Source: an uncultured archaeon (GTDB lineage: Archaea > Iainarchaeota > Iainarchaeia > Iainarchaeales > 0-14-0-20-30-16). Taken from it: 32,000 nucleotides of DNA. Position 1 is the first letter of the stretch; each line of letters opens with the position of its first letter. This document shows positions 10,205-25,196 of the stretch, piece by piece. Below the pieces are notes generated by a model, which searched no databases, was not told where the DNA came from, and was given only the letters and a program-made list of their open reading frames with translations. The stretch covers positions 17,654-49,653 of the forward strand of contig CAYZSS010000002.1 in the NCBI GenBank assembly GCA_964480435.1. Direction: 5' to 3'. A program made the position numbers and the translations under genes.

Positions 10205-12115
10205 ATGGAGAAAATAGAATTACTTTTACCAGCAGGGAACTGGAGTTGCATTAGGGCAGCAGTAGAGAATGGAGCAGACGCAATTTATTTTGGTACTACT
10301 GAATTTAATGCCAGACGAAAAGCAGACAACTTCTCAATAGAGGATGTGAAAAAGGTTGTTTTTTATTGTCACAAAAACGGAGTTAAAGTATACTGCACAT
10401 TAAATGTACTTGTAAAAAATAGCGAAATTACCAGTTTTTTTGCAACAGTAAAAACACTTTATTTAGCAGGTGTAGATGCAGTAATAGTACAACATATTTC
10501 TTTTATTGATATTATAAAACAAAACTTTCCTGGCATGGAAGTACACCTTTCAACACAGGCAGCAATTAGTAATTCATATTTCTCAGAATTAATAAAAGGT
10601 GCAGACAGAGTTATTCTACCAAGAGAATTCAGTCAAAAAGAAATAAAAGATTTTATTAAAAAAACGAAACTTCCTGTTGAAATCTTTGTGCAGGGGGCAT
10701 TATGTTTTTCTTACAGTGGGAAATGTTTATTTTCTAGTTTTCTTGGCGGTCGATCAGGAAATAGAGGCTTGTGTGCTCAACCCTGCAGAAAAATATTTTC
10801 GGGGTCACGTTTATTAAGCATGAAAGAGTTAAGTTTAATTCAAAAAATCCCGCAAATTATTGATAGTGGAGTTTCTTGTGTAAAAATTGAAGGACGATTA
10901 AGAAACGAAAAATATGTAGCAGCAGCAACAAGAGTTTATAGACTTGCAATTGATTCTTATTACAAAGGAACATTTAAAGTAAATCCCGAAAGTTTTAAAG
11001 AATTAGAATTTGCTTTTAATCGTGAATTTACAGAGGGTTATTTTTCTGAAAAGAAAGATTTAGTTTCTCCAGAGAATGCAATGTCACGGGGATTATATTT
11101 AGGCACTTTAGAAGAAGGAAATTTAATAAAAATTACAGAGGATTTATCTGTTGGAGATGGCCTGGGAATTTGGTTAAAAAACAAAGTGGATGGAGCAAAG
11201 GTAAAAAAAATGGAACGTGATGGAAAACCCATTACTGATGCACGAATGGGAGATACAGTAAAAATTAATATAAAAGCGCCGGCAGGAACAAAAATTTACA
11301 AAACATCATCCCAAAAAGAGCTTACCGCCAGAGAAATAAGGTTTGATAAGAGAGCACAAATTTTTGTAAGAAATAGAGAAAATAATCCACTTGTTTTACC
11401 TGCTATTTTGCCACAAAGATCAAAAAACCAAGAGATAATTGTAAAGATATACTCAACAGAAGAAGGCAATAAGGCATTAGATACAGGAGTAAAAGTATTT
11501 TATAATATTTTTGAAAAAGATTTTGATTCTAAATTTGGTGCTTTTGTTCCAAGAATATTATCTGATTTTGATGTTGAAAAAGCAGTTGAATTAATTAAAA
11601 GCCTTAAAGTTAAAGACGTTCTTATTGGAGATTTAGGAGTATATGCTTTACTAAAAGATTCTGGATTAAATTTGTATTTAGATTATTCTGCAAATGTCTT
11701 TAATGATTATGATATTTTGTTTTTCAAAAATGCAATTCCAATTGTTTCTCCTGAACTTTCTTTTAGAGAATTAGGAGAATTTAAAAACAAGAATTTTGTT
11801 GTACTAACACACGGAAAAATAGTTTTTATGAACACAAAGTATAACCAACTTCCAAGTTCATTAACTGATGAAAAAAATTATATTTTTCCAGTTAGAAAAG
11901 AGTATAATTATTATCAAATTTTAAACAGTGTAGATTTAGGATTAGTTTACAAAGTAATGGGGTTAAAAGACATAAAAATAAACAAATTCTTTTTAGATTT
12001 AGAATATGATGTTTCAGAAACAATAAAAATGTACCAAGACATTCTAGCAAGTAAAAAAGTAAATGCTGAGAAAAACAAATACACCAAAGGGCACTGGGAA
12101 GAAGGGGTACTTTAA
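10205..12115 (+). CDS. U32-family protein (peptidase U32 / RlhA-TrhP-UbiU-like Fe-S enzyme), long form
   Basis: The N-terminus is ELLLPAGNWSCIRAAVENGADAIYFG. The sequence EIFVQGALCFSYSGKCLFSSFLGGRSGNRGLCAQPCR gives CX6CX15CX3C. Confidence 0.85.
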   Translation: MEKIELLLPAGNWSCIRAAVENGADAIYFGTTEFNARRKADNFSIEDVKKVVFYCHKNGVKVYCTLNVLVKNSEITSFFATVKTLYLAGVDAVIVQHISFIDIIKQNFPGMEVHLSTQAAISNSYFSELIKGADRVILPREFSQKEIKDFIKKTKLPVEIFVQGALCFSYSGKCLFSSFLGGRSGNRGLCAQPCRKIFSGSRLLSMKELSLIQKIPQIIDSGVSCVKIEGRLRNEKYVAAATRVYRLAIDSYYKGTFKVNPESFKELEFAFNREFTEGYFSEKKDLVSPENAMSRGLYLGTLEEGNLIKITEDLSVGDGLGIWLKNKVDGAKVKKMERDGKPITDARMGDTVKINIKAPAGTKIYKTSSQKELTAREIRFDKRAQIFVRNRENNPLVLPAILPQRSKNQEIIVKIYSTEEGNKALDTGVKVFYNIFEKDFDSKFGAFVPRILSDFDVEKAVELIKSLKVKDVLIGDLGVYALLKDSGLNLYLDYSANVFNDYDILFFKNAIPIVSPELSFRELGEFKNKNFVVLTHGKIVFMNTKYNQLPSSLTDEKNYIFPVRKEYNYYQILNSVDLGLVYKVMGLKDIKINKFFLDLEYDVSETIKMYQDILASKKVNAEKNKYTKGHWEEGVL

Positions 12116-18596: not shown

Positions 18597-19787
18597 CTAT
18601 TGTGAAATAATAAAAACCTTATCTTTAATTCTTACTCTTTCATTCACTTTCAGACCCACTTTTGAACCTTTATTTGCCTTTTGAATTGATTTCCCGTCTA
18701 TTTGTATTGAACTAACTTTCTGCCTGAAAAATGTGCTTGTTCCTTCCACCTGGATAGTATCACCTTTTTTTAATTCTGTTTGTAATTTTAATTCAAACAC
18801 ATTTATTTTTGCGTAAAAATTTGATGCATTTCCTAAATAGATTTTCTTTTCTGTTTCTAAAGATTTGTCTTTTTCATGTATGCTTTCTTTTCCAGGAGTG
18901 TAGAAATAAAAACCAGAGGTAAATCCACGGTTGTATACTTTTTTTAATTCTTCCAGATATTCTTTTTTCTTTTTTTCAGTAAATTTTCCTTTAGAAATAT
19001 CATTCAAAGCGGATTTGTAAACTTTTGCAGCAACATAAACATATTCTGCAGGCTTTGTTCTGCCTTCAATTTTTATTGCTTTAGGTTTTAAATCTGCAAT
19101 TTTATCCAGGAATTCAATTGTACAAAGATCTTTTGAACTAAAGATTGTGTTTCCAACAACATCTAACTCTTTATCAGACTCTTTCATATAAAATGTACGT
19201 CTACAGACTTGTGTACATTCTCCTTTATTTGCACTTTTATCAAAGCAATACAAACTTAAAAAACATCTTCCTGAAATTGATATGCACATACTACCATGAC
19301 AAAAAACTTCAAAATCAACCGCTGATTTTTTCTTAAATTCCTTTATTTTTTCTAAAGATAATTCCCGTGCAAGTACAACCCTATCGATTCCAAAAAATTC
19401 TTTTAATTTATTTGCGCTTAAAGAGTTACTTACAGACATTTGGGTACTAACATGTATTGGGATTTTATTTGCTTTAACTATTTCAATTACACCCAGATCA
19501 GAACAAATTATCCCATCTATTTCAGCTTTTTTTGCTTCAAAAACTATTTTTTTTATTTTTTCTAATTCAGTATCATAAACAATAGAGTTCAAAGTTAAAT
19601 ATGATTTCATTTTATTTTTATGACATAGAGAGACTATTTTTTTCAACTCTGAAACTTCAAAGTTCTTTGCAAAAGCCCTAAGGTTAAAATCATTAACTCC
19701 AAAGTACACTGCATCTGCTTTTGCTTTTATTGCTGCTTGAAGTGATTCTTTACTCCCTACTCCTACTAAAACATCTATTTTTGCCAT
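18597..19787 (-). CDS. U32-family protein, short form
   Basis: The N-terminus has KAKADAVYFG. The sequence EVFCHGSMCISISGRCFLSLYCFDKSANKGECTQVCR again gives CX6CX15CX3C. Confidence 0.85.
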   Translation of the reverse strand: MAKIDVLVGVGSKESLQAAIKAKADAVYFGVNDFNLRAFAKNFEVSELKKIVSLCHKNKMKSYLTLNSIVYDTELEKIKKIVFEAKKAEIDGIICSDLGVIEIVKANKIPIHVSTQMSVSNSLSANKLKEFFGIDRVVLARELSLEKIKEFKKKSAVDFEVFCHGSMCISISGRCFLSLYCFDKSANKGECTQVCRRTFYMKESDKELDVVGNTIFSSKDLCTIEFLDKIADLKPKAIKIEGRTKPAEYVYVAAKVYKSALNDISKGKFTEKKKKEYLEELKKVYNRGFTSGFYFYTPGKESIHEKDKSLETEKKIYLGNASNFYAKINVFELKLQTELKKGDTIQVEGTSTFFRQKVSSIQIDGKSIQKANKGSKVGLKVNERVRIKDKVFIISQ

Positions 19788-19906
19788 AAATATACCCTAC
19801 AGTATATTTTAAACGGAAAGTGTATTTATTAGTTTGCAAAATTACCAAATCAAATATCTTTTTATATTATGCCGTCCTTTATTATATGTACTTGAGAGGT
19901 GGTGCT

Positions 19907-20962
19907 ATGGACTACAAAAATCTTATTGAAAAAAACATTTATTTTGTTGAACCAAATGAGCTTCTATCAAAGATAGCAAACAAGCTAAGAACTGAAAAAG
20001 TAATATTTGTAAGAGACAGTAACAAATTTTATGGTGCAATTTCAAAAAAGAGCTTCATGCTAGTAGGTACGGATCTCTCAAAAATAAAAGCAAAAAGCAT
20101 AGTAAAAAATGTTCCTGAACTAAATAATAAAGTAAAACCCCAAGAAATAGTTGAGGCTTTCATCAATACAAACCTTGAAAAACTACCTTACTCAGAAGAT
20201 AATGAAATTATCGGATATCTTTCCCGAAATAAAGTTTTAGAACACATTATTTTGCCAGAACTTGACGGCACAGTAGGAGAAATAATGTCAACAAATGTAA
20301 TTTTCATAAACATAGATGACAACATCGCCCAAGTTTTAGCACTTCTAAAAGAGCATGGTATAAAAAAATTAGTTGTCCTTGATAAAGGAGAATTAGCAGG
20401 GGTAATAACACTAACAAACATCTTTAATTATTTTGTTACGGGGGATAGAATTAACCTAGATAATTTAAGAAATACAAATGTAAAAGAGGTAATGAAAGAA
20501 AATATTATTTCAATTGGGCCAAATAAAAATATTTCTGAAGCAATAAAAAAATTAATTAATGGAAAAACATCATCTTTAGTTGTTCATGAAAGCAGAGACA
20601 TAAAAGGAATTTTAACAAAAGCGGATGTTTTTGAAAAGTATTTAACAAAACAAAAAAAGAAAAGCTTTTCAATTCAAATAAGTTCAAAACTGGACAAATT
20701 ACCAACAGAAACAATTAATAAAAAATTAGAAAAATTAAGTAAGTTTTTCAAAGAAGATGAAGAAACACATATCTTTGTATACCTTACTTTAGGAAGTGAA
20801 AAATACAAAGGTTCACCATTAGTTAACTGTAGACTAAGGGTTGTAAACTCAAGAAATTGTGAGAATATTTCTGTTGAAGGCTGGGGTATAGATCAAGCAA
20901 TTGAACTTGCTGTAGAAAAAGTAAAAAGAAGAATTGTAAAAGGCAGAGATACCTTTTATTAA
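19907..20962 (+). CDS. Four CBS domains fused to a C-terminal RaiA/HPF-like (S30AE) domain
   Basis: I place the start at ATG 19907, preceded by GAGGTGGTG. Four CBS repeats are recognisable, for example VGEIMSTNVIFINIDDNIAQVLALLKEHGIKKLVVLD. The last ~95 aa are FSIQISSKLDKLPTETINKKLEKLSKFF...HIFVYLTL...CRLRVV...ISVEGWGIDQAIELAVEKVKRRIVK. This segment follows the E. coli HPF/YfiA beta-alpha-beta-beta-beta-alpha pattern. Confidence 0.7.
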   Translation: MDYKNLIEKNIYFVEPNELLSKIANKLRTEKVIFVRDSNKFYGAISKKSFMLVGTDLSKIKAKSIVKNVPELNNKVKPQEIVEAFINTNLEKLPYSEDNEIIGYLSRNKVLEHIILPELDGTVGEIMSTNVIFINIDDNIAQVLALLKEHGIKKLVVLDKGELAGVITLTNIFNYFVTGDRINLDNLRNTNVKEVMKENIISIGPNKNISEAIKKLINGKTSSLVVHESRDIKGILTKADVFEKYLTKQKKKSFSIQISSKLDKLPTETINKKLEKLSKFFKEDEETHIFVYLTLGSEKYKGSPLVNCRLRVVNSRNCENISVEGWGIDQAIELAVEKVKRRIVKGRDTFY

Positions 20963-21009: not shown

Positions 21010-22725
21010 CTATTCTATTTCTGTTACTTTAAAGTTGTCAAAAGCTTGAGCCGAGCTAGACAAATATAATCCAATCCATCTTGCTTTTTCATCTTTTTCT
21101 GCACCGGAGTTATCCACGTATGTGGACCATTCTTCGCCATTTACATAGGCAGTGTACGTGTTGCCTTTAACAACAAATTTCAAAGTAACATCTGCCCCTT
21201 TTGCTAATGTACCTGTTGGGTTTTTCTGAAGAATATCACTCCAACCACCAGAGATACCCGCTGCTGCTTTTATCCAATATGACTCTCCAGGATAAGCAAT
21301 ACCATAAGATTCTATAAATGGCTTATAGATAAAGGTAAGACCATCAATTGCAGCATAATAAGGATATTCTGTGCCTCTTAGAACTACTCCCGCATCTAAT
21401 GAATTCTTTAGGTCCACTTCAATAATATAGTTCTTAGCGTTTACTTTTAGACCCACAAATTTTTTACCTACATAAGGAGTAGTTGGTACAACACCATCAA
21501 CCAAATATTGTAATTTTCCTGCTGCAACTCCAAAACCATTCTTTGACAAACCCCAGTCAGCCCAGTATTTTTTTGTAAATTCAGGATTTTCAAAATCATC
21601 TTTAAATCCAGTCATTACTCCTGCCGGGCCTAAATCAGTAACCCCGCTGTCAACATAGTCTTCAATAGCAGTTACTTTAAAGTTGTCAAATACTTGCCCA
21701 GTATTAGGCCAATAAAGACCAACCCAGTTTTCTTTATCCCCGCTATATTCATTTTTTTCATCTATATATGTTACAGATTCTTCACCATTTACATAGGCAG
21801 TAAATTTATTTCCTTGGACAACTACTTTCAAGTGCAAATTAACACCTTCATCTAAAGTTCCTTTTTCACTTTCCAAATATAAGGACCCCCAACTATAAGA
21901 TCTATTTGTCCAATATGCTTTTCCAGGCATCTTTGCTTCATAGGAATAATTTGATGGCAAATAAATGTATGCCAAACCGCCAAGAGATTTTTCTGGTGCG
22001 AATTCTAAACCTCTAACTATAATTCCTGCGTGTTGTGAGTTTTTTAAATCAACTTCAACAACATAATCTTTGGCGTTTACTTTTAAGCCAATAAATCTTT
22101 CACCAACAATTTTTGTATCTGGAACTTTTCCATCAATTAAATATTGAAGACCACCATTTACAACTTCAAAAGAATTTTCTCCAAAGCCCCAACTAGCCCA
22201 ATATTTTGCACTATAATCTGCGCTTTCAAAATTATCAGAAAAAGGCAGTGACACTCCGCTATCAGTTACTTCTGAATTATTTTCTGTTTTTGTTTCATCT
22301 GTATAAGTTTGTGTATTATCTATTGATTTTGTTTCAGTATCAGTAATTGTTGTTTCTGCAGTTACAATTTCTTCTGGATTCCCAGACTCAATTAATTTTG
22401 AGCCATTAGCAATAACACACATTACTTGGTTATCACTTTCTCTAATATACACTGTTATATGTGTACTGTCCTGATAAAAATCTGCAACCCAGTAAGGCAC
22501 AGCTTTCATCTGCACACCACATTCTTCTTTTATTTTATCTAAATATTGATCTACAACATCTTGCTCCCATAATGCCATTTTAAATTCTGCATTTGGGTAT
22601 TGTGCTAAAAAAGCCTGTACTTGTGGCAATCCTTTTGCTACACTTTCCACGCCCCCACTACCAACACAACCAGATAGTGATAAAACCAATACTAATGTTA
22701 ATACCCCTACTATTGTTTTCCACAT
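21010..22725 (-). CDS. Secreted lipoprotein with two tandem ConA-like/LamG (DUF1080-type) lectin domains
   Basis: The signal peptide plus lipobox is VLVLSLSGC. A Thr/Glu-rich linker follows. Two ~200-aa repeats lie at about 21661-22248 and 21013-21612. Each starts D(N/D)FE...KYWA.WG and ends FDNFKVT(A/E)IE. The DNA repeat gttactttaaagttgtcaaa occurs at both repeat ends. The Shine-Dalgarno sequence is AAGGGGG. Confidence 0.7.
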   Translation of the reverse strand: MWKTIVGVLTLVLVLSLSGCVGSGGVESVAKGLPQVQAFLAQYPNAEFKMALWEQDVVDQYLDKIKEECGVQMKAVPYWVADFYQDSTHITVYIRESDNQVMCVIANGSKLIESGNPEEIVTAETTITDTETKSIDNTQTYTDETKTENNSEVTDSGVSLPFSDNFESADYSAKYWASWGFGENSFEVVNGGLQYLIDGKVPDTKIVGERFIGLKVNAKDYVVEVDLKNSQHAGIIVRGLEFAPEKSLGGLAYIYLPSNYSYEAKMPGKAYWTNRSYSWGSLYLESEKGTLDEGVNLHLKVVVQGNKFTAYVNGEESVTYIDEKNEYSGDKENWVGLYWPNTGQVFDNFKVTAIEDYVDSGVTDLGPAGVMTGFKDDFENPEFTKKYWADWGLSKNGFGVAAGKLQYLVDGVVPTTPYVGKKFVGLKVNAKNYIIEVDLKNSLDAGVVLRGTEYPYYAAIDGLTFIYKPFIESYGIAYPGESYWIKAAAGISGGWSDILQKNPTGTLAKGADVTLKFVVKGNTYTAYVNGEEWSTYVDNSGAEKDEKARWIGLYLSSSAQAFDNFKVTEIE

Positions 22726-22742
22726 TTTGCAGCCCCCTTAAA

Positions 22743-23171
22743 TTAAACCCCACATTGAGTCAAAATAATTGTGCCATCTTCAGCCACAGTAAACACTTTT
22801 TCTGTATTGTCCAAGTCATAGGTAAACACATTATAAAAAAAAGCATTCAATTTAACTGCTTCTGTCACATCACAGCTCAAATTAGTTGATTTTAAATATT
22901 CCTTTACATAATCAATTGCTTCTTGTTCATTTGATATTGTTTTTGTTCCTTCCATTAGTATTGGGCTAGGAGTTACTCCTGAGTCACACCAACAGGAAGG
23001 CACTAAACAGCTATAAAGTTCGCAAACATCATCTTTCACTGCTAAACAATTATCAGGCAAGTCATAATTGTTTTCATCAGATACTACACAGCCATAAAGA
23101 AAAACCAAAGAAATAGATATTACAAAAAAAGATATGAATAGTAACTTATAATTTCGCCTATGTTTTGGCAT
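22743..23171 (-). CDS. Small Cys-rich lipoprotein, function unknown
   Basis: The signal and lipobox read LLFISFFVISISLVFLYGC. The Cys cluster is CLAVKDDVCELYSCLVPSCWCDSG. It lies 17 nt upstream of the lectin gene on the same strand. Confidence 0.6.
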   Translation of the reverse strand: MPKHRRNYKLLFISFFVISISLVFLYGCVVSDENNYDLPDNCLAVKDDVCELYSCLVPSCWCDSGVTPSPILMEGTKTISNEQEAIDYVKEYLKSTNLSCDVTEAVKLNAFFYNVFTYDLDNTEKVFTVAEDGTIILTQCGV

Positions 23172-23215: not shown

Positions 23216-24649
23216 TTAGTTTCCGTTATTTGATACAGAAGGCCTTAATAATAGACGATATGGGCTTGCATTCCCTACTTTTAGAGCCACATCTGTTTCA
23301 GAAATAACATCTATCTGGATAGATTTATATTTTATAAGAGCATCATTTAAATCTGAAATACTGTTTGCAGATAACACAAAATACCCATTAAAAGAAAGCA
23401 AATAATTACAGATATCATTTTGTATTAAGTTTAAAGATTTTGGGCAGAAAAACCCAGCACTAGGAATAACAAAAGCAATATTTTCTTTTGTGCCAAAACT
23501 TTTTATTATATTTTGAGATATCAAATATTTTTCAATATTATTTCCAGTAATAGTAAGAAGAGTTATTTTTCCAATTTTATTTGAAATAACTTTATCAACA
23601 CCATCCAAAGATATTTTTCCTTTGAATAAATTAGGATATGTTAATTTCAAAGTATGGGCCATTCTTTTTGCAAGATAAAGATCATATTCTTTTATTTGTT
23701 CATCAGGCCCAACTTTAGAAATATAACCTATTAATTCATCTATGCTTGCAGGGTTATTATCTTTTGCCCTTTTAAAAATTTCTTTATATTCTTTAAATAA
23801 TCCAAATAATTCTGCAAAACTCTCCAAAGAAACAGAAGACAAATCGACCCACAAATTTGAATTACTTGTACCATCATAATACAAACTTTCAATTGGAAAT
23901 CCAGTTGGCTCAGAATTAGAATTAAATTGTTTAACTAGCTCCGCGTCTGGGTTTGCTTGTTTTAAACCTAAATAAGATTTTTCAAAGTCGAATACTACTA
24001 CTGGTATAGCACCCAAAGAAAATTCTTCAGTAATGTCAAAAATAAGCCCTTTTTGATTTTCTTTTTTTCCAAATATAATTGTTTTTCTAAATGCATCGAT
24101 TTCTTCTGATGCTAATTCTTCTGATGCCTTATGCTTACCCAAAGTTAACATGTGCCCAAAATTTAATTTAACATCTGAAATCTTTTGCAGCCCAGTGGGT
24201 TTCTGCATAGCCTTAAACACATTTAAAGGATTTATAAAAAATGCTGCTTGGGCATCCTTACCTGATTCATGCAAATCCTTTAGATCAATATCATATGTTT
24301 CCGCAATATCAAATACTACTTTTTTTGTTTTTGCTAAAACTTGTATCTGTTTTGTTATTTCCCGATCCATTTCCACCTTATTATTAGGTATTGCCACAGA
24401 TGGGACAGTTAAGCAAAAAAACTTGTCTGTTCGATTTGAGCCATGGATTAAATAAAGTAAATTGTCTTTAGGCAATGTTTCTGCAAAAGACTCTAAATCC
24501 CCTTTAGCATAACCAACATAAATAACATTGATTACCAGATTAGCACTATCATTACTATACAGTTCAGTAAGTATAAAACTATCAAGCATAGACACTTTTA
24601 AGGCATGGCCATCATATTTCCCTTCAAATAAAATAGCCCAATCTGCCAT
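23216..24649 (-). CDS. Hypothetical cytoplasmic protein, 477 aa
   Basis: I place the start at ATG 24649 (MADWAILFEGKYDG...). The track's 57-codon extension is low-complexity and would overlap the divergent gene at 24729. I found no clear catalytic motif. Confidence 0.55.
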   Translation of the reverse strand: MADWAILFEGKYDGHALKVSMLDSFILTELYSNDSANLVINVIYVGYAKGDLESFAETLPKDNLLYLIHGSNRTDKFFCLTVPSVAIPNNKVEMDREITKQIQVLAKTKKVVFDIAETYDIDLKDLHESGKDAQAAFFINPLNVFKAMQKPTGLQKISDVKLNFGHMLTLGKHKASEELASEEIDAFRKTIIFGKKENQKGLIFDITEEFSLGAIPVVVFDFEKSYLGLKQANPDAELVKQFNSNSEPTGFPIESLYYDGTSNSNLWVDLSSVSLESFAELFGLFKEYKEIFKRAKDNNPASIDELIGYISKVGPDEQIKEYDLYLAKRMAHTLKLTYPNLFKGKISLDGVDKVISNKIGKITLLTITGNNIEKYLISQNIIKSFGTKENIAFVIPSAGFFCPKSLNLIQNDICNYLLSFNGYFVLSANSISDLNDALIKYKSIQIDVISETDVALKVGNASPYRLLLRPSVSNNGN

Positions 24650-24728
24650 AGTTATCACACTTAGTGTATATAAATATAAACTTAGCAAATATATACTTTG
24701 CGGATATATAATGTTATAGTGATAATTT

Positions 24729-25196
24729 ATGGTTGTTAGAAGATTACGGGGAGTAGGGGATATAAAAAGAGGAAATACCCAAAAAGCACAAATATATATT
24801 TCACAAGATTTTAGGTCCAAACCCGAGAAAAAAACAACACTAAGAGACAGAATAAGACAAATTCAGGATAATATCCAAAAAAGAAGGCTTGAAAGAATGC
24901 ACCCAGCGGTTAGACAAGCATATGTTAGCTATCTGGCTGCAGAAAAAAGTCTAAAACGATTTCAAAAAGGAGTAAAAACACTAAAAGAGCAAAATAAAGC
25001 AGAACTAGAAGAATGGAAAAAGAAGTTAAAAAATGCAGACGATGAAGAGAAAGCTGAAATTCTTACACAAGCTAAAGAAGATAGACAAAAAAGAACAGAT
25101 TATTTAGATAGTTGGAAACATGCTCTAGAAAATGCAGAAAGCGACTACAAAATAGCAAGACAAGAATTAATTGAAGCAAGAAAGGAACACGGGTAG
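24729..25196 (+). CDS. Highly charged coiled-coil protein, function unknown
   Basis: 155 aa, K/E/R-rich heptad-like sequence (KGVKTLKEQNKAELEEWKKKLKNADDEEKAEILTQAKEDRQKR). Confidence 0.5.
   Translation: MVVRRLRGVGDIKRGNTQKAQIYISQDFRSKPEKKTTLRDRIRQIQDNIQKRRLERMHPAVRQAYVSYLAAEKSLKRFQKGVKTLKEQNKAELEEWKKKLKNADDEEKAEILTQAKEDRQKRTDYLDSWKHALENAESDYKIARQELIEARKEHG

Follow-up and report, generated by a model that had tools for sequence, protein, structure and literature searches.

A compact HibA/AHA-type protein, a probable ribosome hibernation factor, in an Iainarchaeum-like archaeon

A gene at positions 19907–20962 (+ strand) of the window, by which we mean the whole 32,000-nucleotide stretch of archaeal DNA that we analyzed, very probably codes for an orthologue of HibA (also described as AHA), a factor in archaeal ribosome hibernation, and its product would act by the published mechanism. 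Judged from its alignments, the protein is a compact member of the HibA/AHA family, with a shortened loop between its third and fourth CBS domains and a very short C-terminal tail. We refer to the gene as hibA. The original prediction had proposed a ribosome hibernation factor from the DNA letters. The idea is right, but it was already published and the family was previously known.

HibA was defined by Madru et al. (bioRxiv October 2025, then Nat Commun April 2026; PMC13324472) as four CBS domains followed by an HPF/RaiA domain (PAB0961 of P. abyssi, TK1186 of Thermococcus), and 47% of archaeal genomes, spread over every major lineage, carry it. In the P. abyssi 70S–HibA structures (PDB 9SR9–9SRF, also 9T7H) the C-domain occupies the mRNA/tRNA channel of the 30S subunit; on the 50S subunit, the CBS module is seen at three places: the PTC, reached via loop residues 190–207, uL5, and the L1 stalk (PMC13324472). 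The uL5 and L1 stalk poses do not need the PTC loop. HibA binds AMP with a Kd of 12 μM at the CBS3/CBS4 interface, better than ADP or ATP, and its conserved CBS residues lie in the core, not at ribosome contacts (PMC13324472). AHA, which is HVO_2384 of Haloferax volcanii, has the same 4xCBS–HPF architecture, holds two AMP molecules at CBS3/CBS4 and inserts its "loop 3" in the PTC, and 3160 homologues have been counted in 17 archaeal phyla (Souza et al., EMBO J October 2026; PMC13728122). In both HibA and AHA, the archaeal β2–β3 insertion of the HPF domain contacts uS12 and decoding bases. Binding to the 70S ribosome with occlusion of the mRNA/tRNA sites, and a role in stationary-phase survival, are on record for the P. 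abyssi/T. barophilus and H. volcanii proteins only, and neither paper makes a long PTC loop in or after CBS3 a criterion for membership (PMC13324472, PMC13728122). The original prediction also stated that the archaeal hibernation factors described so far have no relation to HPF. This is out of date, since HibA (bioRxiv October 2025) and AHA both carry an HPF domain.

Results

Domain architecture and homology

We searched the 351-residue protein against Pfam. Four CBS stretches were matched by PF00571 (E 2.2e-29), and Ribosomal_S30AE (PF02482) was matched at residues 268–346 with 28.7 bits (E 2.2e-6, gathering cut-off 23.7). When the C-terminal 96 residues were searched alone, the PF02482 match rose to 30.0 bits. 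The fusion of four CBS repeats to an HPF/RaiA-like domain, as originally read from the sequence, was thus borne out, as was a significant profile match of the C-terminal end. The NCBIfam model TIGR00741 (yfiA) scored 18.2–19.3 bits, below its cut-off of 40.9, so the protein should not be taken for a bacterial-type HPF orthologue. On these matches, the C-terminal domain is related to bacterial HPF/YfiA at the superfamily level only.

The first Bateman module, comprising CBS1 and CBS2 (19913–20260, +, approximately residues 3–118), contains the GhhS/T motif and lacks the ribose-binding Asp at the +6 position. CBS3 (20273–20440, +, approximately residues 123–178) has the motif G165-V-I-T168-L-T-N171, the last position of which is Asn here and Asp in 60 of 75 family sequences. 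A shortened connector (20441–20476, +), the counterpart of the HibA "PTC loop" and AHA "loop 3", leads to CBS4 (20477–20653, +, approximately residues 191–249). CBS4 has the motif G234-I-L-T237-K-A-D240, which hardly varies across the family: T stands at the T237 position in 70 of 75 sequences and D at the D240 position in 69 of 75. The putative nucleotide-site residues of CBS3 and CBS4, T168/N171 and T237/D240, are therefore all present. The HPF/RaiA domain (20666–20944, +) is basic (computed pI 9.4), keeps the family motifs R309-x-R311 and E324-G-W-G327, and is followed by a very short C-terminal tail (20945–20959, +). Its β2–β3 hairpin insertion, residues 292–312, has the 21 residues that are both the mode and the median of the family, and aligns with the HibA segment.

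Comparison with PDB sequences using phmmer aligned the protein collinearly with P. abyssi HibA, chain H of 9SR9 (query residues 31–345 against 36–370, E 1.2e-26), and with a second ribosome-bound archaeal CBS–HPF chain, 9l96_a (E 1.7e-19). The hibernation-factor reading is upheld by this collinear, full-length homology to a HibA that has been solved on the ribosome, and the published family to which the protein belongs is HibA/AHA. A C-domain profile built from ten clade sequences matched P. abyssi HibA at E 2e-14 and 9l96_a at E 9e-11, and reached the bacterial HPFs of Listeria, E. coli, L. lactis, B. subtilis and V. cholerae at E 4.5e-5 to 5e-3. By these profile comparisons, the HPF resemblance of the C-terminal domain far exceeds chance. 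Sequence identity to characterized HibA is low, about 25–29% to the Thermococcales representative, and public records name the window protein "CBS domain-containing protein".

The same generic name is given to chain a of PDB entries 9L96, 9L98, 9L9C and 9L9V, a 406-residue protein with an HPF-like end, which is deposited together with a uL16 chain. A full-text literature search for the source of 9L96 found no paper citing the code, and the PDB deposition of AHA itself, 12DM, is distinct from 9L96. Apparently, chain a of 9L96 gives a third structure, obtained independently, of a factor of the HibA/AHA type.

Predicted structure

We used AlphaFold2 (AF2) with a 75-sequence alignment of full-length homologues to predict the structure of the whole protein (pLDDT 92.7, pTM 0.90). 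The model contains four β-α-β-β-α CBS units. A Foldseek search with the full-length model returned CBS tetrads only, including the ribosome-bound SriA–D, MJ1225, AMPK-γ and Dri (E 1e-18 to 1e-14). The PDB copy searched ends on 2026-04-08, and 9SR9 and 9L96 were absent from the matches.

Since the full-length search matched only CBS tetrads, the HPF fold was checked with a separate C-domain model, folded alone from the ten clade sequences (pLDDT 82.7). Among the matches listed for this model, ranks 1–26 were all HPF/RaiA/pY-type ribosome factors and non-HPF folds appeared from rank 27. The best match was Listeria HPF (8uu4_w, TM 0.79, rmsd of 1.9 Å over 100 columns), and the list then includes chloroplast pY, E. 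coli HPF and E. coli YfiA. The topology of the C-terminal domain is identical to that of HPF in both the full-length and the C-domain models, and structure prediction thus gave the HPF fold that the original prediction had anticipated.

The shortened CBS3–CBS4 loop and C-terminal tail

We compared segment lengths within the 75-sequence alignment, in which P0035 stood in for Thermococcales (E 6e-213 to 9sr9_H, same numbering). The CBS3–CBS4 linker, residues 172–194, has 23 residues against a strongly modal 31, and the 8 missing residues fall in the loop. AF2 modeled the loop remnant as a short helix, residues 184–189, not as a long loop. A long PTC loop, as formed by HibA residues 190–207 or AHA loop 3, is therefore absent from the window protein. 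Past the position aligned to HibA residue 370, the C-terminal tail has 6 residues; the median of the 74 homologues is 20, and P. abyssi HibA has 22. The β1–α1 insertion is also shorter, with 12 residues against 15 in Thermococcales, and the whole protein has 351 residues where P. abyssi HibA (9sr9_H) has 392. The combination of a short linker and a short tail was seen only in the window protein's own clade, 6 of the 75 sequences.

Given the truncated PTC loop and the lack of a C-tail extending to the side of mRNA exit, the window protein may not share every part of the published binding mode. From these lengths, we suggest that the HibA of this clade probably relies on the 30S plug and steric occupancy, not on deep insertion into the PTC.

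Co-variation of the shortened HibA elements with a loss of ribosomal partners was considered and rejected, since both partner elements, the tail of uS19 and the loop of uL16, remain intact. The uS19 protein has 132 residues, of which residues 2–131 align to P. abyssi uS19, C-tail included, and the PTC loop of uL16 is conserved in this genome. The uL16 (L10e) gene itself (L017:1285–2001, −) encodes 239 residues, compared to approximately 165–180 in solved archaeal ribosomes; the extra 65 or so residues form a Lys/Ala/Glu-rich C-terminal extension.

Gene start and surroundings

The hibA reading frame is intact, with 351 codons and a stop. Read from the sequence only, a Shine-Dalgarno-like GAGAGGTGGTG (19894–19904, +) lies 2 nt upstream of the ATG at 19907, and a TATA-like A/T-rich stretch, TTTTATATTA (19860–19869, +), suggests a promoter. 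Three homologues of exactly 351 residues from the homologue search span the whole query. The start at 19907 is preferred because of the Shine-Dalgarno-like sequence and these homologues. A public collection holds a 358-residue version of the protein, the start of which would correspond to an in-frame ATG at 19886, 7 codons upstream. We rejected this start, since the Shine-Dalgarno-like sequence would fall inside the coding region and the 351-residue homologues favor 19907; a longer reading from a GTG at 19820 was set aside on the strength of the same sequence and homologues. Two antisense open reading frames within the gene, 20188–20421 and 20556–20714, were taken as shadow frames.

The hibA transcription unit is monocistronic, with a divergent gene upstream, encoding a U32 peptidase of 396 residues (18597–19787, −), and a convergent gene downstream, encoding a lectin-like lipoprotein (21010–22725, −). 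We sought a functional link between hibA and its neighbors and found none; the only conserved neighbor is a convergent gene of 477 codons, and we claim no operon. The representative of that gene in the window (23216–24820, −) encodes a protein without family assignment, of 534 residues from a TTG start or 477 from an internal ATG. Relatives of this protein are encoded by the convergent downstream neighbor of hibA in L006, L007 and L009–L011, which represent both sampled genera of the family. In the window, two lipoprotein genes (21010–23171), coding for the lectin-like 3-keto-disaccharide-hydrolase repeat protein and a Cys-rich protein, separate it from hibA, in what looks like an insertion. 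Searches of Pfam and the PDB gave this protein no assignment, with a sub-threshold TagH SH3-like match only. The U32 peptidase has a paralogue less than 9 kb away (10205–12115, +, 636 residues), and the divergent arrangement of the 396-residue U32 peptidase and hibA is kept in the same-genus relatives L006 and L007.

Host genome and distribution in relatives

The assembly comprises 724 kb in 30 contigs and is estimated to be 77% complete. The host is an archaeon: aSBDS is present and, among the control genomes, was matched in archaeal ones only, Hel308 with archaeal helicase domain 4 is encoded, and uS19 and uL16 are of archaeal type. A homologue of 77% identity is labeled Candidatus Iainarchaeum sp., of the DPANN lineage. 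We found one HPF domain in this approximately 77% complete genome and no standalone CBS tetrad of the Sri/ARC type, the only other CBS protein found being an MgtE transporter. The single HPF domain and the lack of a detected standalone tetrad fit the reported mutual exclusion of HibA and standalone CBS factors (PMC13324472).

Each of the six other genomes of the family has a full-length hibA homologue, at 77–34% identity, and such homologues also occur in several further families of the order. Of 151 genomes sampled from the phylum, 21 were matched by the C-domain profile of the clade; this profile is narrow, and a genome without a match is one in which nothing was found with this query. Thirteen of the 21 matches lie in open frames of 349–426 residues (fused) and eight in frames of 98–126 residues (standalone HPF). 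The eight standalone HPF/RaiA-like frames all come from genomes of the same order. Madru et al. reported HPF-only proteins mostly from DPANN and Nitrososphaerales and proposed repeated loss of the CBS module (PMC13324472), and the mixture of fused and standalone frames, as read from frame lengths, appears consistent with their account. At a wider scale, a word-indexed homologue search retrieved 5 relatives only, and an exhaustive search of representatives gave 3982 matches at E ≤0.001, the best 150 of which are mostly full-length proteins of 350–400 residues.

Discussion

Comparison of the window protein with known systems indicates what it shares with each. As in HibA/AHA, four CBS motifs precede the HPF/RaiA domain in a full-length collinear alignment (E 1e-26), the β2–β3 hairpin insertion and the RxR and EGWG motifs are present, and the archaeal host also has aSBDS. 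The nucleotide-site T in CBS3 and CBS4 and the Asp in CBS4 are likewise shared, whereas the ribose position of CBS3 is Asn and not Asp. With the bacterial and plastid HPF/RaiA proteins (YfiA, pY; PF02482) the C-terminal domain shares its fold (TM 0.6–0.8) and a detectable sequence homology, and the 30S site of those proteins is the same site bound by the C-domain in the archaeal homologues. Unlike them, the window protein places the domain behind a CBS tetrad, carries the archaeal hairpin insertion and has no 100S/long-HPF dimerization domain. The N-terminal tetrad resembles those of SriA–D/ARC from Methanosarcina and Methanolobus (Foldseek match to 9znf_4, SriA/B, E 3e-18) and of Dri from Thermoproteota (E 4e-15), which are ribosome-bound and sense adenine nucleotides; however, these lack an HPF domain, and Dri has two tetrads. 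It also resembles the AMPK γ subunit and MJ1225, with a CBS tetrad fold and nucleotide sites 3 and 4 (Foldseek E ~1e-15), although here there is no kinase complex and the tetrad is tethered to a predicted ribosome-binding domain.

[quoted passage not shown] In starvation, idle 70S ribosomes would thereby stay assembled, silent and protected. An adenine nucleotide, most likely AMP, would be expected at the CBS3/CBS4 junction. HibA and AHA both bind AMP, but the suggestion that the factor is energy-charge-gated exceeds the data, as AMP or ATP had no clear effect on the binding of HibA to ribosomes (PMC13324472). For the window protein, the analysis establishes the domain architecture, the fold, the collinear homology to solved HibA, and the conservation of the motifs and of the gene among relatives; ribosome binding, nucleotide binding, any energy gating and the physiological role are all extrapolated from these homologues.

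We weighed three other explanations. The protein could be a CBS-tetrad transcriptional regulator of the HhpR/CM-3 type, with an unrelated accessory domain as its HPF-like end, as might be read from a weak NCBIfam match to HhpR (30.6 bits) and from the JGI automatic name of a 62% identical homologue, P0005 ([quoted passage not shown]). We consider this very improbable. The score is far below the NF053603 cut-off of 520, our Pfam search of the protein found no DNA-binding domain, and its best relatives over the full length are HibA chains bound to the ribosome. HhpR is, moreover, a separate CBS-module family, CM-3, which has no HPF domain (PMC13324472), whereas the window protein has one. Nor do we give any real weight to the idea that the HPF-like resemblance arose by chance or convergence and that the C-terminal domain serves some other purpose. 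With the single sequence, Pfam gives a modest E-value (2e-6), and TIGR00741 falls below its cut-off, but PF02482 is above its gathering cut-off, the profile matches HibA and many bacterial HPFs significantly, and the 26 best-ranked of the fold matches listed are HPF/RaiA/pY proteins of identical topology; the profile matches and the fold search together effectively refute this idea.

Closer to the preferred reading is a HibA homologue that docks on the 30S subunit and has lost its large-subunit/PTC function, so that it amounts to an HPF with a nucleotide-sensing appendage, or its CBS tetrad mainly binds another partner. The joint shortening of linker (23 against 31 residues) and tail (6 against 20), found only in the clade, points this way, as does the short helix modeled by AF2 in place of the long loop. 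Standalone HPF frames in the same order show that the CBS module is dispensable there, and the location of the conserved CBS residues in the core, away from ribosome contacts (PMC13324472), would also fit. Against it, the whole CBS tetrad persists across the clade with good conservation, an argument that its function is maintained, and the loop is not needed for the uL5 and L1 stalk poses, two of the three described for HibA (PMC13324472). We regard the loss of the large-subunit/PTC function as improbable, and retain the reading of the window protein as an orthologue of HibA/AHA.

A more specific proposal, which we offer tentatively and judge somewhat doubtful, is that the Iainarchaeum-like clade has a minimized HibA, in which most of the PTC loop and the C-tail were lost while the uS19 tail and the uL16 loop were kept, and which would silence ribosomes via the 30S plug and bulk occupancy alone. 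If true, the clade would provide a natural deletion experiment on which HibA contacts are dispensable, and the minimized protein may reflect a streamlining of hibernation in genome-reduced symbionts.

For annotation, the "CBS domain-containing protein" becomes a HibA/AHA-type ribosome hibernation factor, and beyond that the assignment has little importance of its own. Structure–function work on the family has so far covered Thermococcales and haloarchaea only; the analysis extends the family by a DPANN (Iainarchaeota) clade in which the protein is consistently shortened, and this compact form could help to establish whether hibernation requires the PTC loop and the C-tail. It also indicates that even a genome of which about 0.7 Mb was assembled (77% complete by estimate) retains a dedicated hibernation factor.
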